A model generated the notes under the pieces. It was not told the origin of the DNA and searched no databases. It saw only the letters and a program-made list of their open reading frames with translations. Shown piece after piece: positions 6,436 to 24,900 of a stretch of 46,301 nt of DNA. Within the stretch, counting starts at the first letter, position 1; every line of letters begins with the position of its first letter. Made by a program: the position numbers and the translations under genes. The stretch is from the sequence record SRR31156797_403. One strand, given 5' to 3'.

Positions 6436-7431
6436 ATGACATCCGAGAAAAAAATCAATTGGGGCATAATGGGGCTTGGGAAAATTGCACGCACTTTTGC
6501 GGAGGACCTTCAGCGTGCGGAAAATGCCTCTATCCAGGGTGTTGCCTCCCGAAGCGAAGAAAAATCCAGGGCTTTTGCCACCGAGTTTGACGCTGTCAAT
6601 AGTTATGGGTCCTATGCTGAGTTGGCTGCCGATCCCGAAATACACATCGTTTATGTGGCTACACCACACCCCATGCATTTCGAAAATACCATGATGTGCC
6701 TCAAACAGGGCAAGCATGTACTTTGCGAGAAGCCGATGGGCATGAATGCCGCAGATGTATCCGCAATGATTGCAGAAGCCCAGGAAAGAAATTTATTTCT
6801 GATGGAAGGTATCTGGACCCGGTTTATCCCTGCTACCAACCTGCTGCTCGCTCTTATCGAAAAAGGATCCATTGGTGAAGTCATATCTGTTCGTGCAGAC
6901 TTTGGTTTTAAGGGCAATCCTGACCCAAAAGCCCGGCTTTTAAACAAAGAACTTGGAGGTGGTTCACTAATGGATATCGGGATTTACCCGGCCTATCTGA
7001 GTTTACTCGTATTGGGTGTACCTGCTAAAATTCAGGCTATGGCCCGTATGTCAGAAACCAGCGTAGATACTTTTTGCGCCATGTTGTTTGAATACCCGAA
7101 GCAGAGTGCCGTGCTTGAATCGAGTTTTGTAACGGATACACCCACCGAGGCATTTGTTTTTGGGGGCACCGGAACCCTCAAACTCCATGGTGATTTCCAT
7201 CATTCCAGAAAAGTTACACTTTACAGAAAAGGTCAGATGGAGCAAACTTTCAAAATTGAATTTTTGGGCAATGGCTATGTGCATGAAATTGAGGAAGTGC
7301 ATCATTGCCTGAATAATAAACTGATGGAAAGTCCAAAGCTTCCTTTGAAAACAAGTCTTGAACTGATCACGGTCCTCGATCGGGTGAGGACAGAGATCGG
7401 GTTGGATTATCCTGTTGATTTTGATAATTAA
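6436..7431 (+). CDS. Gfo/Idh/MocA family oxidoreductase
   Basis: WGIMGLGKIA, VYVATPH, HVLCEKP, GGGSLMDIGIY. Confidence 0.9.
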   Translation: MTSEKKINWGIMGLGKIARTFAEDLQRAENASIQGVASRSEEKSRAFATEFDAVNSYGSYAELAADPEIHIVYVATPHPMHFENTMMCLKQGKHVLCEKPMGMNAADVSAMIAEAQERNLFLMEGIWTRFIPATNLLLALIEKGSIGEVISVRADFGFKGNPDPKARLLNKELGGGSLMDIGIYPAYLSLLVLGVPAKIQAMARMSETSVDTFCAMLFEYPKQSAVLESSFVTDTPTEAFVFGGTGTLKLHGDFHHSRKVTLYRKGQMEQTFKIEFLGNGYVHEIEEVHHCLNNKLMESPKLPLKTSLELITVLDRVRTEIGLDYPVDFDN

Positions 7432-7442
7432 AACCATAGTAA

Positions 7443-7876
7443 ATGACAAAAACTAAGATAATCTCAAACCCGCGGGTAAATGAGGTTTTTGAAAATTACC
7501 CTGATCATATCCGTGATAAAATGCTGAATCTGCGCAGGCTGGTAATAGAGGCAGCAGATGAATCAGCAGAAATAGAAAACATTGAAGAAACCCTGAAATG
7601 GGGCGAACCCAGCTATCTCACCAAAATAGGCAGCACAGTTCGGATGGACTGGAAGCAAAAGTCGCCGGATCAATATGCAATTTTTTTCAAATGTACGAGT
7701 AAGCTGGTTTCCACATTTAGAAAGATTTACGGGGAAGCTTTTCAATATGAGGTGAAAGGGCCATTGTTTTTAAACTGGAAGATAGAATTCCGGAGCCGGA
7801 ATTAAAAAAATGCATACGCACTGCACTTACCTATCACAAGGTGAAGCAATTACCAAACCTCGGATTGTCATTGTAG
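7443..7876 (+). pseudogene. DUF1801 (YdhG-like) protein with a frameshift near 7750 (pseudogene or sequencing error)
   Basis: EETLKWGEPSY and STVRMDWK in frame 0. The family-like C-terminus GERAIVFKLEDRIPEPELKKCIRTALTYHKVKQLPNLGLSL* lies in the -1 frame, 7751-7876. Confidence 0.75.
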
Positions 7877-7959
7877 TTTCGAGTGCTGCCATTATTTACC
7901 TAACATCTTTGTGCAAAAGGTAAAGCCTCCAGCCATAAAAAAAACAACTGTTGGACAGC

Positions 7960-10104
7960 TTACAGCTCCATCAAAAGGTTGGCCAGCAATGCAGAGCGTT
8001 CCAAAAGGCTGTGCTTTAAAATATATTCTGATTTATTGGAAGGCTTTATTCCTGCGGGGCCCAAGCCGTCAATGAGAGATTTATCATCCCTGATGAAACA
8101 AATATCGGCCGAGCTCCAGCGATGCTCCTCCTTCAGATTGATGTCAAGTTTTGTGGCAATCTCTCTTAAAGTATGGAAAAGCTGCACCGTTTTTTCGGTT
8201 CTTACCATTGGGGGCCTTCGTATACCACCCTCCAATTGTACTTCAAAATCCCGGTTACCCTTTCTGGGGATCATTTTTTTAATTTTCCGGTCGGTTTCTT
8301 CCATTTGTTCCGGATGGTTGAATCTTACGCTCAGGTTGGCTGACCCGTGTGCAAATGGTTCTGTAATATTCGATTCGAGTTGCATTTGCGATGGTGCAAT
8401 TACAAGGCCTTCATCGGGATTGGAAAATTCAGTCCAGGTTGCGATTAGTTTGGTGAATTTACCCACTGCACCGGATACAAAACGGGCGTCAGTAGTATTC
8501 ATCAGGTTAAGCTGACAAAGGAACGCTGCAGCACCGGACCTTGAGGTTACCACGGTATCATCAAGTGATGCGCCGTGTGTACCAATCACATAGGTTGCAT
8601 TTTGTGAAACCCGTGTGATAAGGCTTCCGGTGTATTTCCCCTGCAGTGTGTTATCGCTTGTTATCAAAACACCGACTTTTAGTTTTCTGAGTTGCCTTAA
8701 AAATCGCAGTGCCTGCAGTGCCGAGATTATTACTGCCAGACCTCCTTTATTTTCCCATACACCACTTCCGTAGATCTTTTGTTCGTGGTCCTGGTAATAT
8801 TCGTGCGACGAACTCTTTGTGTCATTATCGAGGTTGGCCAATAAAAGGATGTCGGCGGTTTCATTTTCAGCATTGGTGAAATACATGGCACTTCCCACCT
8901 CTATCTGTGGGTAGGGTTGAAATGCAAATCCTAACTGGCTGAATTGCGTTTTGATGATATTTGAAAGTTTCTTGATCCCCTCAATGTTTCGCACATGTGT
9001 GTTGATGTTCACCATTTCCCGGAGCAGGCTTTCCACCTGGCTTTGACGGCCACGAAGAAATCCACGTATCCTCACATGCGATGGAACTTTGGTGTAAACT
9101 TTTTCTGCTTCAGTAGCAAATTCTGAAGTGGTAAAATAACGGTTTACTGCAACATCGAGCATCTTATTTACCAGCGCTTTATAGTCATATCCGGCCACAT
9201 TTGCTGCATGGGGATACGAACCTGTGGGGCCAAGACTGGCCATGGAATTCAACTCCAGGATATATGCATTACCCTGCTCGTCCATCCTGAAATCCACACG
9301 TGCAAAGTCCTTTAGCTGCAATGCATTAAAAGCATCTACGCTAAGCTTTACCATTTCATTTGTTTTTTCTTCAGACAGCGGTGCCGGACAAAGTTTACGC
9401 TTGGGTTTATTGCTTTTGTGCTCAAAGGTCTGAATGGCATTGGGATCGTTTTCCAGGTCGATTTCCAGCACGGGAAGTGCTTCAACGGGATTGTTGCCCA
9501 GGAGGCCAACGGCAAATTCACGACCTGCGATAAATTGCTCAACAAGTGCCGCTTGGTTAAACTCCCCGATAATATATTTTATGGCCTCACGTAAATCCTT
9601 GTAGTTGTCAACAATACGCAACCCAAAAGATACTGATTCCATTTTTGGTTTTACAATTACAGGAAACTCCACATCGCCTTCGTTGAATTTTTCAGAAGAA
9701 AACACCCAGAATTTTGGGGTGGGGAGGCCGTGCTGCTGAAGGATCATTTTGGTTACTACCTTGTCGAGGGCCAGCGCATGTCCGGCAGGGGAAGATCCCA
9801 CATAAGGGATGCCCAGCATTTCGAGCATGGCAGGGATGTGTGTGTAGCGGCTTTCGCCCTGAATGCCATAAGCCATATTAAAAACCATGCCCATTTTTTT
9901 GCCTTCTACCTCACGAGGCATAAAATCCTGCAAATGCTCAATTACGTGCATGTCGCCATCAATGATGCCTACATTGTGCCCACCTTCTTCCAGGCAATTG
10001 GCCACTTTTTTCACAACTTCGGGATTGTACATTTCACGATTTTGCATCCCGAACTTATTGATCACCTTTGAGGCGTCTTTGTTATAAATTATTGCAACTT
10101 TCAT
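7960..10104 (-). CDS. Fusion of a D-Ala-D-Ala-ligase-like ATP-grasp domain and a degenerate M20 (carboxypeptidase G2-like) peptidase domain
   Basis: N-half: FNMAYG, GIPYVGS, LDKVVTK, IVKP, EQFIAGRE, ARVDFR, LELNS. C-half: M20 landmarks IYGSGV..KGG, RPPM, IDGLGP...EY, but with substituted metal ligands. Confidence 0.85.
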   Translation of the reverse strand: MKVAIIYNKDASKVINKFGMQNREMYNPEVVKKVANCLEEGGHNVGIIDGDMHVIEHLQDFMPREVEGKKMGMVFNMAYGIQGESRYTHIPAMLEMLGIPYVGSSPAGHALALDKVVTKMILQQHGLPTPKFWVFSSEKFNEGDVEFPVIVKPKMESVSFGLRIVDNYKDLREAIKYIIGEFNQAALVEQFIAGREFAVGLLGNNPVEALPVLEIDLENDPNAIQTFEHKSNKPKRKLCPAPLSEEKTNEMVKLSVDAFNALQLKDFARVDFRMDEQGNAYILELNSMASLGPTGSYPHAANVAGYDYKALVNKMLDVAVNRYFTTSEFATEAEKVYTKVPSHVRIRGFLRGRQSQVESLLREMVNINTHVRNIEGIKKLSNIIKTQFSQLGFAFQPYPQIEVGSAMYFTNAENETADILLLANLDNDTKSSSHEYYQDHEQKIYGSGVWENKGGLAVIISALQALRFLRQLRKLKVGVLITSDNTLQGKYTGSLITRVSQNATYVIGTHGASLDDTVVTSRSGAAAFLCQLNLMNTTDARFVSGAVGKFTKLIATWTEFSNPDEGLVIAPSQMQLESNITEPFAHGSANLSVRFNHPEQMEETDRKIKKMIPRKGNRDFEVQLEGGIRRPPMVRTEKTVQLFHTLREIATKLDINLKEEHRWSSADICFIRDDKSLIDGLGPAGIKPSNKSEYILKHSLLERSALLANLLMEL

Positions 10105-10106
10105 TT

Positions 10107-10688
10107 TTAATTGATTTCAAAACCACACATTTTTAAAAAGTTAGATACGATGAGCAACCCGTCTTTTCCGGAAACTTCAGGATGTGCCTGGAAACCATAG
10201 ATGGGTTTATCCTTGTGCCGGATGATTTCGTTGGGCGTAACTTCCGATTCGGCCAGGCATATAAAATCCGGAGGCAAATCCGAAACATGAAAATGATGAC
10301 GCCTGGTGAGGAAAATTTCATCTTTGTTTAATCCTTCAAAAATGGGGTCATCAGGCATCGTGATTGTGATTTTCTCTTTTTTCTGATGGTATTCGGGCAG
10401 TTTTTTAATCCGTCCGCGGTGAGCTACTGCTATGATTTCGTGACTCAGGCAAAACCCGATTGTGGGTACGTCAAAGTTTATGAGCGACACAAAATCTGCC
10501 GTGAGGTTTAGTGGCTCATAGGGGTTTCCACGTCCTCCCGAGAGCATAAGTCCTTTGATCTCGGTTCTTTCCGAAAGAATGATGGGCTGATTATGATCAA
10601 AAAAGATATAATCAAATGATTGTTCAGACAAAAAGTTCCGTTTGAACTTTTTAATGAAACTACTTTGGTTGTCAACAATGAGTAGCAT
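10107..10688 (-). CDS. Stand-alone class I glutamine amidotransferase (paralog 1)
   Basis: LSGG, GFCLSHE (Cys nucleophile), QAHPE (His-x-Glu). Stop lies 2 nt before the ATP-grasp start. Confidence 0.9.
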   Translation of the reverse strand: MLLIVDNQSSFIKKFKRNFLSEQSFDYIFFDHNQPIILSERTEIKGLMLSGGRGNPYEPLNLTADFVSLINFDVPTIGFCLSHEIIAVAHRGRIKKLPEYHQKKEKITITMPDDPIFEGLNKDEIFLTRRHHFHVSDLPPDFICLAESEVTPNEIIRHKDKPIYGFQAHPEVSGKDGLLIVSNFLKMCGFEIN

Positions 10689-10850
10689 GACAATGTCTTG
10701 AATTTAAATGAATAAAGTGTAAAAAGAGTAACTATGTGCACCGGGTGGGAAGTATGACACTGTCAATGCCTCTTGATCGGTTGCAAGGCAAAAAAAACCT
10801 GTTTTTGGCTTCCCGGAATCCTCACGAACAAATCTTTCAGAAAAGCGGCG

Positions 10851-10858
10851 CGAAAATA
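10851..10858 (-). promoter_or_regulatory. Putative Bacteroidota sigma-A -7 element for the GATase/ATP-grasp transcript
   Basis: TATTTTCG on the minus strand, one mismatch from TAnnTTTG, about 160 nt upstream of the ATG. Confidence 0.45.
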
Positions 10859-11042
10859 AAATAATTTTGATTCAGCGGTTATTTCTTTCGATTTTTTTTA
10901 TTCTTCACTCAAGACTGTAATTTCGGGGGATGGTGTGACTGTGATATGCTTTGATTAAAATTACCAATCGGGTGAAGTACACCAGAATATTTCTCATTAT
11001 TTCCCCGACCTGAAAATTGTAAACCCCTTTGTTGTTAAGGTG

Positions 11043-11621
11043 TTAAAGATCATACCCGCAAATCCTGAAAAAGTTTTTCATGATTTGTAACCCTACTTGT
11101 CCGGAGGCCTCCGGGTGGCCCTGAAATCCATAAATGGGCTTTGCTCGATGTTTGATGATTTCATTGGGGGTGATCTCTGATTCTGCCAGCCTGACGAAAC
11201 CATCCGGCAATACAGAAACATGATAGCTGTGCCGGCGTGCAAGGGTAATTGTTTCGTATGGGATGCTTTCAAAAATCCTGTCTTCAGGATGTAAAATGTG
11301 GATGGGTTCTCTTTTGGTGTAGTAGCCGGGAAGTTTGTCGATCTGCCCACCGAAGTTAACCGCAATAATTTCATGCCCCAGGCAAAACCCCATTACCGGA
11401 ACATCAAAATTGGAGAGCGCAATAAAGTTGGTTGTGAGGTTTAAGGGTTTAAATGGGTTGCCCCTGCCACCCGACAAAATTACACCTGATATTTTTTGGC
11501 TTTGCAACCCCACTATTGGCTGATTATGATCGAGCATTTTGTAGGGAATATTCCGTTCAGCCATGAAAGTCGCTTCAAACTTTTTGATGAATGCATTTTG
11601 GTTGTCGATGATCAACAGCAT
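11043..11621 (-). CDS. Stand-alone class I glutamine amidotransferase (paralog 2)
   Basis: MLLIIDNQ start at 11621 aligns with the paralog 1 start. GFCLGHE and QGHPE triad. The upstream extension to 11810 overlaps the kinase and is probably spurious. Confidence 0.9.
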   Translation of the reverse strand: MLLIIDNQNAFIKKFEATFMAERNIPYKMLDHNQPIVGLQSQKISGVILSGGRGNPFKPLNLTTNFIALSNFDVPVMGFCLGHEIIAVNFGGQIDKLPGYYTKREPIHILHPEDRIFESIPYETITLARRHSYHVSVLPDGFVRLAESEITPNEIIKHRAKPIYGFQGHPEASGQVGLQIMKNFFRICGYDL

Positions 11622-11622
11622 T

Positions 11623-14600
11623 TTAATTATCGCTTTTGGGGATAGAAAAACAAAATGTGCTTCCTTTTCCTGGTTCACTTGCCACGGTAAATTCACCGTT
11701 GTGTTTTTTAATGAATTCGTGGCTAAGCACCAGGCCAAGGCCTGTGCCCGTTTCTCCCTCTGTGCCTTTGCTGGTATTCCGGTATTGCAAATTAAAGAGC
11801 TTTTCTGCAACTTCCTTTTTCATGCCAACGCCGGTATCTGTTACACAGCATTTTGTTTCGGTTGAGCCTTCGCGCGCCGTAATGGAGATTTTGCCATTTT
11901 TTTGGGTAAATTTTATGGCATTGGATATCAGGTTTCGCAACACAGTGTGCATCATGTTCTGATCTGCCACAATTTCGATATCCTGTTCAATTTCATTAAG
12001 CACCCTGATGTTTTTGAAAAATGCATCTCCTTTTAATTGGTTAATCACATCGCGGGCTATGGAGTTTAATTTTAATTGTTCAGGGTTGAACTTGATTTCC
12101 TTTTTTTGAATCCTTGACCACTCCAGTAAATTCACCAGCAATTGAAAGGTGTCTTCGGTTGTGTTGCGGATGATTTGAATAAATTCTACCTTTTCTTCTT
12201 CATGTAAAACCTCCCAGTCGTTAACCAGGATGTCACTAAATCCAAGCATACTATTGAAAGGGTTTTTCAGGTCGTGTGCAATAATAGAAAAGAACTTATT
12301 GCGTGTTTCATTGGCTACTTTTAGCTCACTGTTGGAGTGTTTGAGTTCGAGAGTTCGCTCTTCAACAATGCGTTCAAGTTTTTCGTTTTGCTTTTTGATT
12401 TCGCCCATACGCCACCAATAAATTGCAAGGATGGCAACACCTACCAGGACAAGGATGATGAGTTTAAAGTATATGGTTTCATGAAAAAATGGAAGAATTT
12501 CTACCTGTATCTTTGTAGTTGTTTTACACCACTCACCTGAATTATTGGCTACTTTAAGTTCAAAAATATGTTCGCCCGGAGGAAGTGATGAGATGGTGAT
12601 CTTTCGTTCATCTTTCAAATCAATCCACTGGTCGCTGTTTTTATCAATCTTAATGGCATAGTGATTATCATGAGAGATAAAATACTGCAGGGACGAAAAA
12701 TATAAGGTAAAAACATTCTGCTCAGGCCTGAGGATAATTGAATTGCTATATGATGGAGAAATATCATGTAAAGCCGTATCACCAATAATTTGAACGTCAC
12801 TAATTACAGGGCCTGGAGGTGTGGGGTAAACACGCACCTTTGAAGGGTTAAAAATAACAATACCGTTGATCCCTCCAAAAAACATCCGGTTTTTGCCATA
12901 CTGGGCAAATGCTGCACTGTTGAATTCATTGGATGGCAACCCGTCCTCCCTGGTGAATGACACAACAGATTTGTCGTCAGGATTAAACCTGCAAATACCC
13001 ATGTTTGTACTCAACCACAAATTATTTTTTTCATCTTCAAGAATGCCATAAATAAAATTATTGGGTAAACCATTACTAATTGTGTATAGCCTGTGACTGT
13101 GATCTTTAAATTTGAGATTGTAAAGGCCTGTTGATGTTCCAAGCCAGTACTCGTTGGTTGCAGATTGAAAAATACAGTTTACTCTTGAAATTTCTTTTGC
13201 AAGGCCTTCAAATTTATTTAAAATGTTGATGAATGTATTTTGCTCTGGGATGTACTGAAAAAGATACCCCTGGTACGAAGTGACCCATATATTCCTGTTT
13301 GTATCAATCAGAATTCCATTTAGGCCAATTAATTCGCCTGTTCCACTATTTTGGTCAGTAATTGTAAAAAACTCATATTCCCAGGTTTTTTTGTTAAATA
13401 TGTGGAAACCGGCACCGGAGCAAATGTACAAATGACTTTTGTCCTTATTGGCAAGGGCAAAAATATCATTTCCCTGTATACTAACAGGCGAACCTTTTAC
13501 TTTTGGTAATTCCTGCCACGTTGGGATGCTTGTGATTTTATTTTTCTTTTTGTCAAGAAAATACAAACCTGTTCCTTCGTTCCCAATCCATATCAGGTTT
13601 TCATCGGCATTATCCTGGCAAAGGGAATAGCTTAGATTAGGAAAGAAAGTTTCTGTAGTATTTGTTGCCAGGTTTATTTTCTGCAGGCCCACGTAACCGC
13701 CTACCCAAATATGGTTTTCATTTTCGGGTAATATACTTCGAACGCTCGAAAAGTTGAGCTTCATGGATTCGGGGCGTTTATGCGTAATTGTCAGGAAATT
13801 TCTGGTATTTGGGCTTAAAATATTTAACCCTTTTCCATTTGTTCCGAGCCAGATATTGCGATCCCGATCCTGAAAAATGGTTTTGACTGTCTTGTAATTA
13901 ATATCATAATCAGTTTCACCTTCCCGGTAATAAGTTACCTCATCCGATTGGATGTTATAAACTCCGGCACCATCCAAATCAGTTCCAAACCAAATTATTG
14001 AATCATTGGTCATTTCTAAATCCCAAATCACAATAGACACATATTCAAATTTGTTTAAAATTTCATTAACCTGTTTTGCTACCAGGTTGCTTTTATTCAC
14101 CTTTAATAAAGATCTGCCATAGGTTGAAATCCAGATATGATTGTTTCTGTCCTCAATAATACCGGTAACAATATTTTGTGACCTTTTAAAGGCATCAAGT
14201 GGTCCGAAATCCACCGGTACGCAGCTCATTTTCTTATTTTCCAGAAAACACATATCCCCCGATTCAAAACCTACCCAAACGTCGTCGTTGCTATCCACAA
14301 ATAGCGCAGTTACCCGGTTGTCAGGCACATATTTATTTTCGGGCATGCCAGGAGAAAATGGTATAACCGTGTCGTTGATAAAATCGATATAAAAAAAGCC
14401 GGTACTATATGTGCCTACCCAAAGATTGTCCTGCGAATCTGATTTGATTGTTGTAATGGAAACGGTTTCGCTTTCCCTGATAAACTCATATAAACCGAAC
14501 ACGCCTTTTTTTGTATCGAAATAGTTCAGGCCATGTGCTGTACCAATCCAGATATTTCCTTTTTCATCGCAATGAATCGATTTAATTTCATTGGAACTGA

Positions 14601-14877
14601 TTGATTTTCCATCGCCGGGATCATGTCGAAATATTTTTATATCATAACCATCATAACGGTTTAATCCATCATTGGTGCCAATCCATATAAATCCCTTTTT
14701 ATCCTGCGCAATAGCGTTTATTGTTCCCTGCGAAAGACCGTTATCGTTGGTGAGTTTGTGAAATATGGGGGAATCAATATTGATACGTTCCGGGTTTCCT
14801 GTAGCCAGAAAAGTAATCGAAAAGGAAAAGAATATGAGTCCAATGAATTTTCGTAAAGAAATTTCCAATGCATTCAA
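11623..14877 (-). CDS. Sensor histidine kinase with periplasmic beta-propeller (Reg_prop) and Y_Y_Y domains, no receiver domain
   Basis: GLSQGTINAIAQD, repeated IWIGT blades, GLPSNEFN, TM helix, IAHDLKNP (H box), RNLISNAIKFT, DTGVG, GTGLGL. Confidence 0.9.
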   Translation of the reverse strand: MNALEISLRKFIGLIFFSFSITFLATGNPERINIDSPIFHKLTNDNGLSQGTINAIAQDKKGFIWIGTNDGLNRYDGYDIKIFRHDPGDGKSISSNEIKSIHCDEKGNIWIGTAHGLNYFDTKKGVFGLYEFIRESETVSITTIKSDSQDNLWVGTYSTGFFYIDFINDTVIPFSPGMPENKYVPDNRVTALFVDSNDDVWVGFESGDMCFLENKKMSCVPVDFGPLDAFKRSQNIVTGIIEDRNNHIWISTYGRSLLKVNKSNLVAKQVNEILNKFEYVSIVIWDLEMTNDSIIWFGTDLDGAGVYNIQSDEVTYYREGETDYDINYKTVKTIFQDRDRNIWLGTNGKGLNILSPNTRNFLTITHKRPESMKLNFSSVRSILPENENHIWVGGYVGLQKINLATNTTETFFPNLSYSLCQDNADENLIWIGNEGTGLYFLDKKKNKITSIPTWQELPKVKGSPVSIQGNDIFALANKDKSHLYICSGAGFHIFNKKTWEYEFFTITDQNSGTGELIGLNGILIDTNRNIWVTSYQGYLFQYIPEQNTFINILNKFEGLAKEISRVNCIFQSATNEYWLGTSTGLYNLKFKDHSHRLYTISNGLPNNFIYGILEDEKNNLWLSTNMGICRFNPDDKSVVSFTREDGLPSNEFNSAAFAQYGKNRMFFGGINGIVIFNPSKVRVYPTPPGPVISDVQIIGDTALHDISPSYSNSIILRPEQNVFTLYFSSLQYFISHDNHYAIKIDKNSDQWIDLKDERKITISSLPPGEHIFELKVANNSGEWCKTTTKIQVEILPFFHETIYFKLIILVLVGVAILAIYWWRMGEIKKQNEKLERIVEERTLELKHSNSELKVANETRNKFFSIIAHDLKNPFNSMLGFSDILVNDWEVLHEEEKVEFIQIIRNTTEDTFQLLVNLLEWSRIQKKEIKFNPEQLKLNSIARDVINQLKGDAFFKNIRVLNEIEQDIEIVADQNMMHTVLRNLISNAIKFTQKNGKISITAREGSTETKCCVTDTGVGMKKEVAEKLFNLQYRNTSKGTEGETGTGLGLVLSHEFIKKHNGEFTVASEPGKGSTFCFSIPKSDN

Positions 14878-14962: not shown

Positions 14963-17608
14963 TTAATCCGGTTTCTTAAATTTAAAATTGATGCTGATTT
15001 CTCCCGATTTGGCATGATATTCAATATGGTCTTTTTTTAGGTCAATATTTTGTCCGGTGCCGGCTTCGATCAATTTTGTTATGAATATGAGTCCGCTGTC
15101 GATAATCTCATCCATGGTTTCCTTATCGGGATTGAAGCAGGTAGTTTTTTGATTTTCAGATTGCGTATTCTCCATCCCGGTGGCCTGATCTGTGGCAAAG
15201 ACTTCCGGTTCATCCTCATCAAAATTTAGCTGCATTTGTCCAATGTTATCCCTGGTTTTTGGCTCCCTGGCGTCATCAGATAATATCATTTGCTCAATAC
15301 TATCACGGAGTGCAGAGGTGAGTTGTTGGCGGAGAGGGGTATTCATTTCTGTACTAACCGGTTTATTGTTATCACCGAAAAGGCGGTCTGCCAGGTTGAA
15401 CTCAATCTCAAGTCCGGCAGCAATTTTAGATTCCAGCGAATTTTCTGCAACCAGGTTGATGATAGTAAAGTGGCTGTCTTTTTTGTTCAGGTCGCCAATG
15501 CTGCCAAATCGGTCATCCCGATCTCGTGCAGTTTTTGGTACCTCCATGTTGATGAATGTATCAATTTCATTCAGATGGATAAACGCTATGGATTCAGGGC
15601 CTGCAAGTAACAGGTTATAATTTGAAAGCGCTTTGGTATTTATGGATTTTGCATTGGACGGCACCTCAATGTAAGGCAATTTGTTGAGGGTAAGCATGCG
15701 TGCTACCATGTTCTGCATTTGTTTCCACTCGGTGAAAATAACCACCCTGTGATTGCTTTTTCTGATGTGGATTTTTGAAATCAAAAGATGTTTTAATTCA
15801 TCAATCTTTGGTGAAAAGCCGGCGGAATTATCTACTAAGTATGCAGCATTTGCTACCATACGCAATTGGCCAACAAGCTTAAATACGCGCTGAAGTTCGT
15901 AAGAACTCACAATTTTCTTTTCAAGCAACTGGATGATTTCCCGTGCAAATCTGATGTGTAATTTCTTTTGGGATGAGGTAAGTTTTACCGGTATGTCAAA
16001 CTGGTCGAGGTTTGGCAATTGTTTTATTACCTCCTTACGCTGCCGGCGGATCAGAACAGGTTTGAGCTTTTCATTCAGTCCGGCCAGGTCGTAATAACCA
16101 ACGATGGTATTTTGGGTTTGAGAATCGAAATAACAATGCTGATATGAAAACTCCCAAAGTGGCGCGAGCAATTCGGGATCGACAAACAGGATGATGGAAT
16201 AGAGTTCGATAAGCTCCGATTCAACAGGAGTGCCCGTTAATACGAGTGAATGTTTTCGCTGTATGGATTTGATGGTGGATGAGGTTTTAGATGCGTAATC
16301 ATGCAGGCGCTGGGCTTCATCCAGAATTACAAAATCCACATCAATCTCCGAAACCATTGCTTTGTCGCGCAAAACAGTTTCGTAACTAACAACCTTAAAA
16401 AAGGCTTCTTGGCCGAAATACTTCTGTTTCCTTTCTTCAGGATTGCCCTCTATCAGGATAGCCTTTTCGTTCGTGAAATCCGCTATTTCATCGATCCACT
16501 GTTTTTTTAAAGTTCCGGGACAAATGATTAGTGTACTGGTAAATCCCAGAATCTCTTTTTTGAATAATGCAGCCGAAATGGCCTGGATGGTTTTTCCTAA
16601 CCCAAGTTCATCGGCAATCACTGCACCCTTCCTGAAAGTGGCAAACTGCACACCCTCTTTTTGATAGGATAGCAGTTTGGGTTTTAGTTTTGAAAAGTCA
16701 AGTAGGTTTTCCTGTTCAGCTCTATTTAATGCGTTGATTTCAGAAATGTTCTTCACCTTGTCGTAAACTTCAGGCCTGACCATGATTTGCCTGAAGTTAT
16801 CGAGCGCGTTGAAAAAACCGAGAAGTCTTTCTGCATCCTTATACTCCAAATATTTTTTGTTCCCGAAGTATTTATAAAAAAGTTCGGCAACCTCACCATA
16901 AATTTTCTCAGGATAGTACCAGGTGATTTTGTGATCCCTGAATGGGTCAAGGTAAACTTCAATAAATGGGTAAACCGGGGGAGAGGTAGGATTTAGTATT
17001 TGTTTTTTTTGAAGGTGATCGAAAGCAAACATCAGGTGCTTGCATGTGCCCAGTTTGTTGGTGCGGTAATCAGGGCATGAGCAGTAACCGGTCTGGTTTT
17101 TCAGATCACGAAAGGTGAGCATATATTCCACACCCCGCTCGTTGGTAAGCAGGTGTTCACCAAAAATATTATCGGCATACTGGATGGTATATTTGGCTTT
17201 GAGTGCCTTTTTTCTGCGTTCTTCGGACACCCTTTTTATCATGCCATCGCGGGTGTATTTAATGCCTGCCGCCGGAACAGGATCAATATCCAGTTTTATG
17301 AGTTCGTGCAGTTGCATCAGTGCAGCCGTGCGATGACGGCAAACCTGGCCTGAATTACAAGTGCAGTTTGATTGCAAACCCGGTTTGGTGTCAATTTTCA
17401 CCAGGTAATCACCATAGGTGTCATTCACCGAAAACTCGAAATGATGCTCCGAAGCTGAAAGTCGTGAACACTGGCCATTTAGATAAAGACTGTAACCCTG
17501 TTTGTAGATCAATCCTGAGGAGCTATTATCGGAAGATATCTTACGGAGTTCGCTGCTTATGGCATCCAGTGTTTTTTTTGGCATGATATAATCTTTAAGG
17601 TTTATCAA
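14963..17608 (-). CDS. Double SWIM zinc-finger / SNF2-family helicase-like protein with degenerate C-terminal lobe
   Basis: CTCNSGQVCRH and CSCPD...TCKH (SWIM). ADELGLGKT, DEAQR and LTGTP are present; motifs V/VI are diverged. The start may be ATG 17584. Confidence 0.85.
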   Translation of the reverse strand: MINLKDYIMPKKTLDAISSELRKISSDNSSSGLIYKQGYSLYLNGQCSRLSASEHHFEFSVNDTYGDYLVKIDTKPGLQSNCTCNSGQVCRHRTAALMQLHELIKLDIDPVPAAGIKYTRDGMIKRVSEERRKKALKAKYTIQYADNIFGEHLLTNERGVEYMLTFRDLKNQTGYCSCPDYRTNKLGTCKHLMFAFDHLQKKQILNPTSPPVYPFIEVYLDPFRDHKITWYYPEKIYGEVAELFYKYFGNKKYLEYKDAERLLGFFNALDNFRQIMVRPEVYDKVKNISEINALNRAEQENLLDFSKLKPKLLSYQKEGVQFATFRKGAVIADELGLGKTIQAISAALFKKEILGFTSTLIICPGTLKKQWIDEIADFTNEKAILIEGNPEERKQKYFGQEAFFKVVSYETVLRDKAMVSEIDVDFVILDEAQRLHDYASKTSSTIKSIQRKHSLVLTGTPVESELIELYSIILFVDPELLAPLWEFSYQHCYFDSQTQNTIVGYYDLAGLNEKLKPVLIRRQRKEVIKQLPNLDQFDIPVKLTSSQKKLHIRFAREIIQLLEKKIVSSYELQRVFKLVGQLRMVANAAYLVDNSAGFSPKIDELKHLLISKIHIRKSNHRVVIFTEWKQMQNMVARMLTLNKLPYIEVPSNAKSINTKALSNYNLLLAGPESIAFIHLNEIDTFINMEVPKTARDRDDRFGSIGDLNKKDSHFTIINLVAENSLESKIAAGLEIEFNLADRLFGDNNKPVSTEMNTPLRQQLTSALRDSIEQMILSDDAREPKTRDNIGQMQLNFDEDEPEVFATDQATGMENTQSENQKTTCFNPDKETMDEIIDSGLIFITKLIEAGTGQNIDLKKDHIEYHAKSGEISINFKFKKPD

Positions 17609-17620
17609 AAATTCCGGTTG

Positions 17621-19927
17621 TTAATCAGTAATCTTTAGCCGGGCAAATTTTAGCAACAATTGTTTTTGACCTACAGCCGGGAAAAATACCGTGGCTTTGC
17701 GGCTTGCTCCGGCACCCTCTATATTTAACACCTTGCCCTTTCCGAAGCGCTGATGTTCTACCTGCATTCCCGACTGGATTTCATCAGATGGGGAAGGCGC
17801 AAATTTTTCGTTGTTGCCACCCTTGTTTTCCTGGTTTCGTGAATCGGCAATTTTTTTTAATCGTCCCTGGCTGAATGCAGGTGGCTTTTTGAGTTTGGTG
17901 GTAGAATCTTCCAACCTGAATCTGGTCTTGTCGCTGGGATGGTTGATCACTTTACGTGGAAACTCAATATATTCTTCGTCGATTTCTTCGATGAAACGGC
18001 TGGGCTCGCTTATGGTTAGATTTCCCCACCGGTACCGGTTTTCTGCGTATGATAGTGTTGCCTGTGTTTGCGCACGGGTGATGGCTACGTAAAACAGCCT
18101 GCGTTCCTCCTCAAGGTCTGATCTGGAATTGAGTGACATGATAGAGGGAAATAGGTTTTCTTCCAACCCAACCACAAAAACATAAGGAAACTCAAGGCCT
18201 TTTGCGGCGTGGATGGTCATTAGCGACACCTTGTTGGGGTCATCGTCTTTTTGATCGGCATCGGTGAGTAACGACACATTTTGAAGGTACTTGTCCAACG
18301 ACCGGATCGAACTGTCTTCTTCATCACCGGGTTCCGGTTCAGCTTCCGAAAATTCCTTAATACCATTGAGCAATTCCTCGATGTTTTCCACCCGGCTTAT
18401 GCCTTCAGGCGTTTTGTCGTCTTCCAGGTTTTTCAGGATGCCGCTGGCTCTGGCAATGTCTTTTGCGATTTCGAAGGCATTTCTTGTTTTGTGCTCAACC
18501 ATGAACCGCTTCATCAGGTTGATGAAGTTGAAGATTTTGGTTTGGATGCCCTGGTTGATGCGCAGATCATACTCACCGAGGGATTCCATCATCTCCCACA
18601 TCGACTTGCCCAGTTTATCGGCTGCAACGGTAATCCTGTCGATGGTGGTGGATCCGATGCCGCGTGAGGGATAGTTGATGATGCGTTTCAGGGCTTCTTC
18701 ATCAGCGGGATTTACCACCACCCTGAAATAAGCCAACAGGTCTCTAATCTCTTTCCGGTTGTAAAATGAAAGCCCTCCATAAATCCGGTAAGGAATGTTG
18801 AGCTTTCGGAGTGCTTCCTCCATGGACCGCGATTGGGCATTTGTGCGGTAAAGGATGGCGAAATCGCTGTTGGGCAACTGGTTATTCATTTTGGTTTCAA
18901 AGATGGCATTGGCCACCATATTGCCTTCCTCTGTATCTGTGCTGGCCCGGAAAAGCCTGAGCCGGTTACCCTCTACGTTGTCAGTCCATATTTTTTTAAA
19001 AATCTGCTCCTTGTTTTTAGCGATTACGCTGTTGGCAGCATTCACAATGTTTTGTGTTGAGCGGTAATTCTGCTCCAGTTTGTAAGTTTTAAAATCCGGG
19101 TAATCATTTTTAAAATTCAGGATGTTTTGGATGTTGGCGCCGCGAAAAGCGTAAATACTTTGAGCGTCATCACCCACAACGCAGATGTTTTCGTGACGGG
19201 CTGCCAGCTTTTTCACGATCAGGTACTGGGCATAATTGGTGTCCTGGTACTCATCCACCAGGATGTATTTGAATTTTTCCTGGTATTTCAGCAGCACATC
19301 AGGGTGGTCGCGCAGGAGAATATTCATGTTGAAAAGCAGATCGTCAAAGTCCATTGCGTTTGACTTTTTGCATCTGGCGGTATAAATGGAGTAAATATTC
19401 CCGATAAATGGTTTACCCGAATTTTTATCCTGGTTGGTCAGGTCAACGTTGGAATTATAGTCATGTGCTGAAATCAAATTGGTTTTGGCCGATGAAATGC
19501 GCCCTAAAACATGGCCGGGCTGATAGGCCTTGGTGTCCAGGGCCAGTTCCTTAACGATTGCGCGGATCAGGCTTTTGGAATCATCTGTATCGTAAATGGT
19601 GTAGTTGGAAGGATACCCCAGCAGGTGCCCGTCCACACGTAAAACTCTTGCAAACACGGAGTGAAAGGTGCCCATCCACACACTTTTGGCATCTGTATTT
19701 CCAACAATTTGCAGGATGCGGTCCTTCATTTCGCGGGCAGCTTTGTTTGTGAAGGTTAGTGCCAAAACATTAAAGGCGTCAATGCCTTGCTGAAGCATGT
19801 ATGCAACCCTGTAGGTCAGTACGCGGGTTTTCCCCGATCCCGCGCCGGCAATCACCATGGCCGGACCCTCAAAGTTCTTTACAGCCTGCTGTTGGGCATC
19901 ATTTAATTCTTCCAGAAAATTTCTCAC
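17621..19927 (-). CDS. pcrA: ATP-dependent DNA helicase UvrD/PcrA
   Basis: AGAGSGKT, TFTNKAA, VDEYQDTN, VGDDAQSIY, NYRST, TIHAAKGLEF, EERRLFYVAITRA and C-terminal Tudor-like HQRFGKG. GTG start. Confidence 0.95.
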   Translation of the reverse strand: MRNFLEELNDAQQQAVKNFEGPAMVIAGAGSGKTRVLTYRVAYMLQQGIDAFNVLALTFTNKAAREMKDRILQIVGNTDAKSVWMGTFHSVFARVLRVDGHLLGYPSNYTIYDTDDSKSLIRAIVKELALDTKAYQPGHVLGRISSAKTNLISAHDYNSNVDLTNQDKNSGKPFIGNIYSIYTARCKKSNAMDFDDLLFNMNILLRDHPDVLLKYQEKFKYILVDEYQDTNYAQYLIVKKLAARHENICVVGDDAQSIYAFRGANIQNILNFKNDYPDFKTYKLEQNYRSTQNIVNAANSVIAKNKEQIFKKIWTDNVEGNRLRLFRASTDTEEGNMVANAIFETKMNNQLPNSDFAILYRTNAQSRSMEEALRKLNIPYRIYGGLSFYNRKEIRDLLAYFRVVVNPADEEALKRIINYPSRGIGSTTIDRITVAADKLGKSMWEMMESLGEYDLRINQGIQTKIFNFINLMKRFMVEHKTRNAFEIAKDIARASGILKNLEDDKTPEGISRVENIEELLNGIKEFSEAEPEPGDEEDSSIRSLDKYLQNVSLLTDADQKDDDPNKVSLMTIHAAKGLEFPYVFVVGLEENLFPSIMSLNSRSDLEEERRLFYVAITRAQTQATLSYAENRYRWGNLTISEPSRFIEEIDEEYIEFPRKVINHPSDKTRFRLEDSTTKLKKPPAFSQGRLKKIADSRNQENKGGNNEKFAPSPSDEIQSGMQVEHQRFGKGKVLNIEGAGASRKATVFFPAVGQKQLLLKFARLKITD

Positions 19928-23811: not shown

Positions 23812-24900
23812 ATGCTGAAAAATATGAAAACAAGTGTTTTAGTTCATTTTCTTTTGGTCCTTATTCTTGCAATTCCATCCATCACCTATGGTCAACCCGA
23901 CAATGGAAAACTGAAGGTGGCACTTCGTTCATCACCACCCTTTATTATGAAATCTGATGCCGGTTATTCCGGGGTAAGCGTTGACTTGTGGGAGGAGATA
24001 GCGCCGTTAATTGGCAGGGAATTCGAATACCGTGAATATGATGATCTGGGCAGAATGCTGCGTGATATTGAAAATGAAGAAGTTGACCTGTGCATCAACC
24101 CACTTACCGTAACTTCAGAACGACTAACCCGATTTAGTTTCACCCAACCCTATTTCATTTCGGGGGTTGCTATTGCTGTAAAGGCAGAACAGTCAAGCGG
24201 CATTATTACCTTCATCAAAAGCCTGTTTTCAATGCGGTTTCTGGAGGTTGTTTTATTACTTGTTTTTGTAATTTTCATTTTCGGGTTTCTGATCTGGATT
24301 GTCGAGCGCAGGAGGAACCCTGATCAATTTGAGAAAGGTTTCAAAGGCATTGGGCAGGGCTTCTGGTGGTCGGCTGTAACCATGACTACTGTTGGGTATG
24401 GAGATAAGGCGCCGGTTTCAGGCATAGGACGATTTATTTCAATCATCTGGATGTTTACAGCCGTGATAATAATCTCAAGTTTTACAGCGAGTATTTCAGC
24501 AGCACTTACTTACGATAAATTCAAAACCAATATCAGGGGTATTGAAGATCTGCGAAATGTAAATGTGGGAACGGTGAGCAATTCAAGTACTGCAGGTTTT
24601 CTCTTTGAATCCAGGATTAAGTTTAAAAGTTTTGAAAAACTGACAGAAGCCATTGATGCCCTGGAAGCAAATAAACTTGATGCAGTCGTTTACGATGAGC
24701 CCATATTGCGTTACCAGATATTTTCGAAAGGTTTGGACAGCCAGGTGGAATTGATCCCAAGCGGGGCAAATTCAGTTTATTTTGGCTATGCCTCAAAAGA
24801 CCTGCAGTTTCTCCAGGAAATCAACCCTCATCTCATCGAAACCATCGAAGGCCGGGCCTGGCGGAGGCTGCTTGAGTCGTACAACCTGCGACTGGAATAG
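23812..24900 (+). CDS. GluR0-like ligand-gated K+ channel (amino-acid binding domain split by a K+ channel pore)
   Basis: SPPF...GVSVDLW...TVTSER...FTQPY (S1), TM1, FWWSAVTMTTVGYGDK (selectivity filter), TM2, S2 with SST and YDEPIL. Confidence 0.85.
   Translation: MLKNMKTSVLVHFLLVLILAIPSITYGQPDNGKLKVALRSSPPFIMKSDAGYSGVSVDLWEEIAPLIGREFEYREYDDLGRMLRDIENEEVDLCINPLTVTSERLTRFSFTQPYFISGVAIAVKAEQSSGIITFIKSLFSMRFLEVVLLLVFVIFIFGFLIWIVERRRNPDQFEKGFKGIGQGFWWSAVTMTTVGYGDKAPVSGIGRFISIIWMFTAVIIISSFTASISAALTYDKFKTNIRGIEDLRNVNVGTVSNSSTAGFLFESRIKFKSFEKLTEAIDALEANKLDAVVYDEPILRYQIFSKGLDSQVELIPSGANSVYFGYASKDLQFLQEINPHLIETIEGRAWRRLLESYNLRLE

Follow-up and report, generated by a model that had tools for sequence, protein, structure and literature searches.

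Amide ligases paired with an amidohydrolase are already known. In the PuuA/PuuD system, an ATP-dependent ligase makes a glutamyl amide that is cleaved by a stand-alone enzyme with the class I glutamine amidotransferase (GATase) fold, while glutathionylspermidine synthetase/amidase is an ATP-grasp amide ligase joined to an enzyme that undoes its product. In yeast, Dug2p, which we take to carry an M20-like domain, is paired with Dug3p, an enzyme of a different GATase class; Kaur et al. (2012) reportedly cover this pair. There are precedents for enzymes of this kind cleaving gamma-glutamyl peptides, namely plant GGP1, which has the class I GATase fold (PMC12958103), and yeast Dug2p-Dug3p, a GATase-named enzyme (PMC7617739). 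The Rlo operon of Pseudomonas is reported to encode an ATP-grasp protein, the membrane protein RloB and a polyglutamate-cleaving protease tied to hypo-osmotic tolerance; this protease cuts runs of at least eight glutamates, and mutations in rloB and rloC suppress its loss (PMC12239564). Here we describe a locus on a 46,301-nt stretch of DNA from record SRR31156797_403 (the window, whose numbering is used for all coordinates), in which a 714-residue protein combines an ATP-grasp domain resembling D-alanine–D-alanine ligase (Ddl) with a degenerate, CPG2-like M20 peptidase domain. What is unusual, when compared with the pairings above, is the apparent recruitment of a dead peptidase domain and the use of an exchangeable partner.

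The fusion gene (7960..10104, minus strand) was defined from its open reading frame (ORF), matches to Pfam and NCBIfam, its full-length family, AlphaFold modeling and Foldseek searches. It is the last of four genes lying head to tail, all on the minus strand, in the order sensor histidine kinase, GATase-2, GATase-1 and fusion. In part of the related loci, the GATase is replaced by a gamma-glutamyltransferase (GGT). The explanation that we favor, and hold tentatively, is a ligase working with a gamma-glutamyl-amide hydrolase, the product of which would be a small glutamate-containing amide.

The fusion is far from a curiosity of this locus. Its full-length architecture is found in 1890 database proteins, the best 120 of which are 714-731 residues long, 56-86% identical, and come from sources including Ignavibacteriota, Bacteroidota, Marinimicrobia, KSB1 and Planctomycetota. 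In a collection with one genome per species there are 389 confirmed matching stretches. The best 80 of these, with 52-86% identity, include the cultured Marinifilum, Carboxylicivirga, Draconibacterium, Propionigenium maris and Desulfopila, as well as archaeal records labeled Methanosarcinales and Thermoplasmata. Such recurrence puts the architecture far beyond chance. All locus counts given below refer to these best 80 of 389. Whole-genome checks were made on relatives, and a good number of the related genomes were assembled from metagenomes and could have gaps. The earlier note on this DNA, made from the sequence alone, knew of no described system with this architecture, and full-text literature searches (articles without supplements) found none either, although the amidoligase survey of Iyer et al. 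(2009, Mol Biosyst) may mention it.

The ATP-grasp domain spans residues 1-326 (9127..10104, minus strand), as judged from alignments to Ddl structures, conservation in 79 family members and its match to DdlB. It contains a Dala_Dala_lig_C domain (PF07478) at residues 121-316 (E 1e-35) and is a single, Ddl-type module, with a CPSase_L_D2 match at E 1.7e-5. The earlier note had reported that the ATP and metal residues are retained, and this holds throughout the family, since D114, K115, K152, E189, R269, D271, E284 and N286 are unchanged in 79 of 79 members. Of 19 ATP-grasp positions that were checked, 17 are invariant in all 79, the exceptions being D275 (77/79) and Q190 (72/79), while R273 is an additional invariant residue of the domain. 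The residues needed for ATP/Mg binding and for acyl-phosphate formation are all kept. The departures from Ddl listed in the same note are also seen, in the sequence as well as in HMMER alignments to solved Ddl structures: FNMAYG occupies the FPLLHG position, TFEHKS occupies the DYETKY position, which puts S231 in place of the omega-loop Tyr, and no GGxSxE motif is present within residues 1-31. In the lid loop, the Gly-Ser of Ddl is aligned with S157-V158. The D-Ala-positioning triad of Escherichia coli DdlB is presumably composed of Glu15, Ser150 and Tyr216 and, in these alignments, the fusion has lost all three. The 714-residue protein could thus plausibly be a Ddl-branch amide ligase that now serves a new substrate, a conclusion that we draw with some reserve.

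A more prosaic explanation, that the fusion is a plain cell-wall D-alanine–D-alanine ligase with an extra domain, would account for its best family models being those of Ddl (NF002378, E 6e-53) and for DdlB being the top structure for residues 1-326. However, besides the wholly lost triad, every Ddl cut-off is missed, with 179.5 bits against 243 for NF002378 and 163.9 against 245.65 for TIGR01205. Moreover, the four bacterial relatives in which this was checked all have a separate canonical Ddl that passes the cut-off with 263-322 bits, while their fusions score 163-171 bits. The family also occurs in archaea, and the one archaeal carrier checked has the fusion and no canonical Ddl. By these sequence criteria the fusion is not a housekeeping Ddl, and the plain-ligase explanation is hardly credible.

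As for the second half, the CPG2-like M20 domain comprises residues 339-714 (7963..9090, minus strand), with both lobes present, as defined by VIA-align, by mapping of the ligands against CPG2 (1cg2) and by counts in the 79 members. It is connected to the ligase by a flexible interdomain linker, residues 327-338 (9091..9126, minus strand). Peptidase_M20 (PF01546) matches residues 436-712 with 27.4 bits (cut-off 24.6), and the NCBIfam "glutamate carboxypeptidase" model PRK06133 matches residues 352-714 with an E value of 3e-29, under its cut-off. In comparison with 1cg2, other residues stand at the positions of four metal ligands and of the catalytic base (H112 is replaced by N424, D141 by E451, E175 by N485, E176 by T486 and E200 by H510), and the Glu-Glu pair is found in 0 of 79 members, in line with the pseudopeptidase proposed in the earlier note. 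We assume here that CPG2 residue numbers equal chain position plus 22, and the fifth zinc ligand, H385, presumably is replaced too. The domain is thus predicted to have lost the capacity to coordinate the catalytic zinc pair. It is nevertheless strongly conserved, and the invariant motifs peculiar to it, TSRSG (R522), EHRWSS (H661, R662) and DGxGPxG, argue that it has been kept for a non-peptidase role.

Structural modeling supports this domain assignment. A first AlphaFold model, based on a 16-row alignment, had a mean predicted local distance difference test (pLDDT) score of 60.6 and a poor ATP-grasp half, and was used for the M20 fold search only. In that search, VIA-align ranked CPG2 (6xj5) at the top, with a Z score of 32.9 and an RMSD of 3.5 Å over 368 residues, the runner-up being poly(aspartic acid) hydrolase (7ljh) with a Z score of 25.9. 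The model was replaced by a second one, based on a 95-row alignment, with a pLDDT of 91.0. When submitted to Foldseek, this model retrieved CPG2 1cg2 (E 4e-28), with a target-normalized template modeling (TM) score of 0.80, as well as DdlB (E 1e-24, TM 0.83). A search of the ESM Atlas returned only the fusion family itself. The linker is disordered in the second model (pLDDT <50), and its predicted TM score of 0.58 leaves the relative orientation of the two domains undefined.

The relatives of the fusion have diverse architectures. ATP-grasp paralogues with 41-45% identity are fused to an RloB-like seven-transmembrane (7TM) module (P0291, P0298, P0301 and P0287), which in P0291 and P0298 matches the NCBIfam RloB "osmotic stress tolerance membrane protein." Other relatives are stand-alone ligases of 325-350 residues, stand-alone degenerate M20 proteins and tandem double ATP-grasp proteins, and some are fused to a Gate/nucleoside-transporter-like membrane domain. 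A search for forms longer than 1250 residues found none, and triple fusions of about 910 residues were absent among the best 120 proteins and among the best 150 rows of the paralogue search. One 733-residue protein (P0278) combines a KamA-family radical-SAM amino-acid 2,3-aminomutase with an ATP-grasp domain that shares 50% identity with fusion residues 1-327, a hint that relatives of the ligase act on beta-amino acids. A KamA-type aminomutase was also considered as a conserved partner and rejected, being present in only 2 of the 80 loci.

Some of these architectures bear on the possibility that the fusion makes a polymer or a tag, either oligo- or poly-glutamate or a RimK-like glutamylation of protein C termini, with the dead carboxypeptidase reading the growing end and the GATase or GGT trimming it. 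Enzymes of the GGT and C26 families do trim poly-gamma-glutamyl chains, the nearest paralogues carry the RloB-like module or are tandem double ATP-grasp proteins, and the M20 half has poly(aspartic acid) hydrolase as its second-best structural match. The taste of the Rlo protease for glutamate runs would fit as well (PMC12239564). However, the ATP-grasp domain is Ddl-type, and enzymes of this type typically make one bond. The RimK domain PF08443 is not among the Pfam matches of the fusion at E ≤ 0.01 (precomputed lists show it on some family members only), a non-match that says nothing on whether the fusion acts in a RimK-like manner. In addition, the fusion family is without the 7TM module, and no target-protein candidate or exporter is conserved across all loci. 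We therefore view a polymer or tag ligase as quite improbable.

GATase-1 and GATase-2 share 57% identity over 192 residues. GATase-1 (10107..10688, minus strand) is a 193-residue class I triad amidotransferase, as indicated by its PF00117 match, its orthologues and their linkage to the fusion. Its TAA ends at 10107 and the ATG of the fusion is at 10104, which leaves the 2-nt gap that the earlier note had pointed out. GATase-2 (11043..11621, minus strand), a diverged tandem paralogue of 192 residues whose most likely start is the ATG at 11621, keeps the triad (GFCLGHE, GFQGHPE). The two proteins score 81.9 and 86.8 bits with PF00117 (cut-off 22.8). The intact Cys-His-Glu triad reported previously is confirmed, C80, H169 and E171 being invariant in 19 of 19 aligned GATase members. 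The closest solved relative is GMP synthase subunit A (7yc6, E 8e-22), followed by TrpG and PabA, yet the equivalog models are missed (89 and 101.6 bits versus 198 for NF001975, and 57.7 versus 121 for TIGR00566), and no GMP, anthranilate or PABA synthase is adjacent to the GATases in the window. Peptidase_C26 (PF07722) also matches, over residues 70-171 only and more weakly than PF00117, with 23.6 and 24.8 bits for a cut-off of 20.5. The GATase family has 531 database matches, the best 120 of which show 70-93% identity and come from several phyla, and GATase-1 is an orthologue of the family that is linked to the fusion elsewhere. A second GATase copy is present in only 1 of the 80 related loci (L002), and GATase-2, coupled to the sensor kinase, would be a lineage-specific duplicate.

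The partner of the fusion is not constant. ORFs of the 80 loci were clustered, and recurrent clusters were named by Pfam and then counted. The GATase family is found in 42 of the 80 loci, so that the linkage in other genomes anticipated by the earlier note does exist: in 29 the gene is on the same strand and at most 210 nt upstream of the fusion, in 10 it is further upstream, with an MscS gene between GATase and fusion in 9 of these, and in 3 it is on the opposite strand. In 28 loci there is instead a 542-residue GGT (PF01019, E 2e-114), which lies directly downstream of the fusion in all 28, with a gap of at most 60 nt in 24 by ORF calls, the calls in the other 4 being over-extended or broken. 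An FGase-family amidase (PF05013, E 1.5e-41) accompanies the GGT in 18 of the 28 loci; of the 10 without it, 8 extend 3.8 kb or more downstream. GATase and GGT are found together in 0 of 80 loci, and neither is found in 10, 4 of which have one flank too short to judge. Whole genomes show the same: no GATase orthologue was found in five GGT-type genomes (best matches 26-35% identity), no orthologous GGT in five GATase-type genomes (best 31-35% identity, or no match), and no orthologue of either in five genomes with neither partner. We tentatively read GATase and GGT as interchangeable partners that would both cleave gamma-glutamyl amide bonds.

Several loci without a linked partner deserve mention in their own right. 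In genome G018, contig C23 carries at 23933-24502 fragments that are 46-62% identical to the linked GGT, two of them broken by TGA or TAA, which look like a decayed partner gene. At the G158 locus (L082, 1979-7850), the fusion has no GATase or GGT beside it. The gene before it, which ends at a distance of 11 nt, encodes a radical-SAM protein, and the genes after it, which share its strand, encode MarR, a GNAT acetyltransferase and alanine racemase. Two further loci (L016, 6655-14291, and L027, 706-8300) share the order peroxiredoxin, Fur-family regulator, fusion, isochorismatase, thioredoxin-reductase-like flavoprotein, 315-residue protein and sodium:solute symporter, a context with a possible oxidative-stress flavor. 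Conversely, G170 has a lone GATase orthologue, 70% identical, between a uracil-DNA-glycosylase-family gene and two GAPDH genes (L081, 6702-7280).

Next, the partner types were placed on a maximum-likelihood tree of 79 fusions, 42 of GATase type (the window included), 27 of GGT type and 10 with neither. The partner label requires six changes on this tree, at least three of which are forced by well-supported branches, and the window belongs to a GATase-type clade of five rows that is surrounded by rows of GGT type. In the 79 members, ligase catalytic residues do not differ between partner types. The replacement by GGT, the partnerless loci and the repeated switches show that the ligase is not dependent on the GATase.

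Two positions of the fusion vary with partner type. At residue 157 (9634-9636), in the lid-loop motif KPKME[S/A]VS[F/Y]G, all 42 GATase-type members have Ser, and 25 of the 27 GGT-type members have Ala; this association is not significant when relatedness is allowed for, there being one independent pair on supported branches. Residue 424 (8833-8835), the first zinc ligand of CPG2 and the His of its HxD, is His in 18 of 27 GGT-type and in 0 of 42 GATase-type members, which have Pro, Asn, Ser or another residue. The M20 site is thus more decayed in GATase-type lineages.

These findings bear directly on the reading put first by the earlier note, a two-subunit, glutamine-dependent amide synthase in which the fusion would form an acyl-phosphate and ammonia channeled from the GATase would turn it into a carboxamide, for example an uncharged compatible solute of the amide type. 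The GATase has much that such an enzyme would need: an intact and invariant triad, ammonia-donating subunits with a separate synthase as its best relatives, an identity of 70-93% among the best 120 of 531 matches, which fits a constrained interface, close spacing both here (2 nt) and in the 29 loci with the gene just upstream on the same strand, and no other synthase partner nearby. A neutral osmolyte released through MscS would fit amidation, the tracking of the partner by Ser157/Ala157 hints at a link with the active site, and GGT can also act as a glutaminase that releases ammonia from glutamine. Amidation would also avoid the futile cycle that a coupled ligase and hydrolase would form unless regulated. 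However, GGT stands in place of the GATase in 28 of 80 loci and 10 have neither, with which 10 of 10 genomes checked agree, and there have been at least three partner switches while the ligase catalytic residues stayed constant in both types. Furthermore, MscS splits the GATase from the fusion in nine loci, the GATase is on the opposite strand in three, and the residue-157 association comes down to one independent contrast on supported branches. A prediction of the complex between fusion and GATase, with a score of 0.00, is evidence neither way. The carbamoyl-phosphate synthetase precedent invoked in the note does not apply, as there is no CarA/CarB-type pair: the CarA small-subunit model TIGR01368 gives 41 bits for a cut-off of 307, and the ATP-grasp module is single. 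This reading is no longer the leading one and appears rather unlikely, but it is the foremost competitor.

Genes near the fusion in related loci offer physiological clues. MscS is encoded in the flanking sequence of 25 of the 80 loci, at most 300 nt away in 15. CorA is found in 12 loci and SpeY in 12, together with a ureohydrolase in 8, and in L006 the fusion comes last in a row that starts with pyruvoyl arginine decarboxylase and continues with SpeY and an agmatinase-like gene. The SpeY/ureohydrolase pair converts agmatine to homospermidine, according to Li et al. (2026), and a term search of that article returned no mention of a ligase of the fusion type (PMC13625781). An obligatory polyamine link was considered and rejected, since the DHS/SpeY family is present in 30 of 50 fusion-bearing genomes, even counting archaea that need DHS/SpeY anyway, and SpeY is near the fusion in the 12 loci only. 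Taken together, the MscS, CorA and polyamine neighbors point to a possible role in osmotic and cation balance, as do the paralogues fused to the RloB-like module when seen in the light of the Pseudomonas Rlo system. In the window itself, no relatives of GGT, FGase, MscS, CorA, SpeY, pyridoxal-phosphate-dependent decarboxylase, agmatinase or GNAT-carbon-nitrogen hydrolase were found. The last of these is a 507-residue protein in which a GNAT acetyltransferase is joined to a carbon-nitrogen hydrolase domain (ORF cluster c21, e.g., L073, 4996-6519). Its gene is near the fusion in 6 of the 80 loci, and in two of Prolixibacteraceae, L056 and L073, it precedes the unit of GATase, MscS and fusion.

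The system of ligase and gamma-glutamyl-amide hydrolase that we favor would work as follows. The ligase would activate a carboxylate and join it to an amine, yielding a small glutamate-containing amide. The simplest product candidate fitting all parts is gamma-glutamyl-glutamate or a short oligo-gamma-glutamate, a specific identity that we put forward as conjecture, and a glutamyl-polyamine could be made at the loci beside homospermidine genes. The dead peptidase domain might hold the substrate or product by its glutamyl end, or might serve as a docking platform. GATase-1, through Cys80-His169-Glu171, would be the gamma-glutamyl-amide hydrolase, a job done elsewhere by GGT with or without the FGase-like amidase. 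Ligase and hydrolase would then adjust how much glutamate is free and how much is bound, and so contribute to osmotic and cation balance. The glutamate-centered reading follows from four glutamate-related parts, namely the CPG2-like M20 half, the class I GATase, GGT and the FGase-family amidase, and a hydrolase cycle is favored over an ammonia donor because the partners share an attack on the gamma-glutamyl amide bond. The earlier note had held such a cycle in reserve as its alternative. It has gained from the exchange of GATase for GGT, which it fits better, while the kinship of the GATase with ammonia donors is the part that sits badly with it.

Several observations weigh against this explanation. 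In sequence, the GATases come closest to subunits that genuinely donate ammonia (those of GMP synthase, TrpG and PabA), with a weak C26 score, and a ligase tightly coupled to a hydrolase of its own product is a futile cycle unless regulated. The argument for glutamate is one of family resemblance among the four parts. In a sample of 201 genomes from the order around Carboxylicivirga, four of the five genomes with the GATase family also carry the fusion (once as a fragment at a contig end), which supports the linkage, but in the fifth, G170, the fusion was not found. An FGase-family gene was found in 0 of 5 GATase-type genomes, and the two partner sets are hence not strictly equivalent. Finally, MscS is missing from the window, and the polyamine link is optional. 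A broader proposal, more speculative and somewhat doubtful, is that of a horizontally spread glutamate-buffering cycle in anaerobic sediment bacteria and archaea. The ligase, guided by the dead peptidase domain, would lock glutamate away in a gamma-glutamyl dipeptide, oligomer or amide, and non-homologous hydrolases would release it on demand, a fast, ATP-gated change of osmolyte and counter-ion acting along with MscS, Mg2+ and polyamines.

The sensor histidine kinase (11623..14877, minus strand) has 1084 residues and, by Pfam and NCBIfam, contains Reg_prop repeats, Y_Y_Y, HisKA and HATPase_c. Its TAA is at 11623-11625 and the ATG of GATase-2 is 1 nt beyond, so close that the two may be coupled in translation. 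L002, the closest relative (86% identity), likewise has the kinase followed by two GATases and the fusion, and kinases of the same ORF cluster are within 8 kb of the fusion in 11 of the 80 loci, in variable positions. No response regulator adjoining the kinase was identified. The kinase is a possible regulator, whose membership in the gene unit is uncertain. The two GATase genes are separated by a non-coding spacer of 354 nt (10689..11042, with no strand assigned), which probably carries the promoter of the GATase-1/fusion unit, and a scan of 7400-12200 against Rfam at E ≤ 1 gave no match, i.e., no known riboswitch or leader. The flanks of the window encode a protein with a type IX secretion system tail, an aldehyde:ferredoxin oxidoreductase, RsgA, SNF2 and UvrD helicases and KatG, gene families that suggest the housekeeping genes of an anaerobic member of the Bacteroidota. 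The helicase genes lie upstream of the kinase (14963-19927) and encode an SNF2-family helicase with a SWIM zinc finger (881 residues) and a UvrD/PcrA-type helicase (768 residues); the SNF2 protein has sub-threshold matches to the defense-system helicase models ZorD and DrmD.

If the favored explanation is true, genes annotated as "D-alanine--D-alanine ligase," "M20 hydrolase" and "GMP synthase" in hundreds of species would form a distinct metabolic module, and a new glutamate-derived metabolite or solute would enter microbial osmotic and cation physiology. The fusion would illustrate clearly how a ligase can recruit a pseudo-peptidase domain, and the partner exchange would be a natural non-homologous replacement between a Cys-triad GATase and an N-terminal nucleophile-type GGT. 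Misleading annotation, such as "Ddl" in archaea and stand-alone "GMP synthase" genes, would be corrected. Direct testing is possible because there are cultured carriers, including Marinifilum fragile JCM 15579, Carboxylicivirga species, Propionigenium maris DSM 9537 and Desulfopila sp.

How the locus relates to known systems is best seen part by part. With Ddl (DdlA, DdlB, VanA), the fusion shares the three-domain ATP-grasp fold over the whole Ddl length (8evz, TM 0.83, 28% identity) and the residues for ATP, Mg and the acyl-phosphate. It differs in being without GGxSxE, in having Val for the Ser of Gly-Ser and Ser for the omega-loop Tyr, in its extra invariant Arg273, in falling under the Ddl cut-offs, in being fused to an M20 domain and in occurring beside canonical Ddl in bacteria and also in archaea. 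With CPG2 (1cg2, 6xj5), it has in common the two-lobe M20 fold and the "KGG" and "D" framework motifs, whereas the metal ligands and base are replaced and the motifs TSRSG and EHRWSS are its own. The GATases resemble GMP synthase subunit A and TrpG/PabA, their best sequence relatives, in their length of about 190 residues and their Cys-His-Glu triad. The usual motif of such amidotransferases is CLGHQ, but the GATases here have CL(G/S)HE, score below the equivalog cut-offs and are linked to an ATP-grasp ligase.

The combination of a ligase with a hydrolase has parallels of its own. The (Dug2p-Dug3p)2 complex of yeast likewise relies on a GATase-named subunit and a partner to cleave the gamma-glutamyl bonds of glutathione and gamma-Glu dipeptides, but includes no ligase (PMC7617739). 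PuuA/PuuD and related pathways of gamma-glutamylation, as well as the gamma-glutamylpolyamine synthetases (PMC8998196), have the same ligase-plus-hydrolase logic, and polyamine genes are near some fusion loci. In contrast to the present system, their ligases are glutamine-synthetase-like, their hydrolases are typical C26 enzymes and no dead peptidase is involved. RimK/RimB and RloABC also encode an ATP-grasp amide ligase with an enzyme that undoes its product, and for Rlo the likeness extends to osmotic tolerance and glutamate-rich substrates (PMC12239564). What sets the locus apart from these two systems and from glutathionylspermidine synthetase/amidase is that the fused hydrolase-like domain appears degenerate, the presumed active hydrolase is separate and exchangeable, and the ATP-grasp domain is of the Ddl type.

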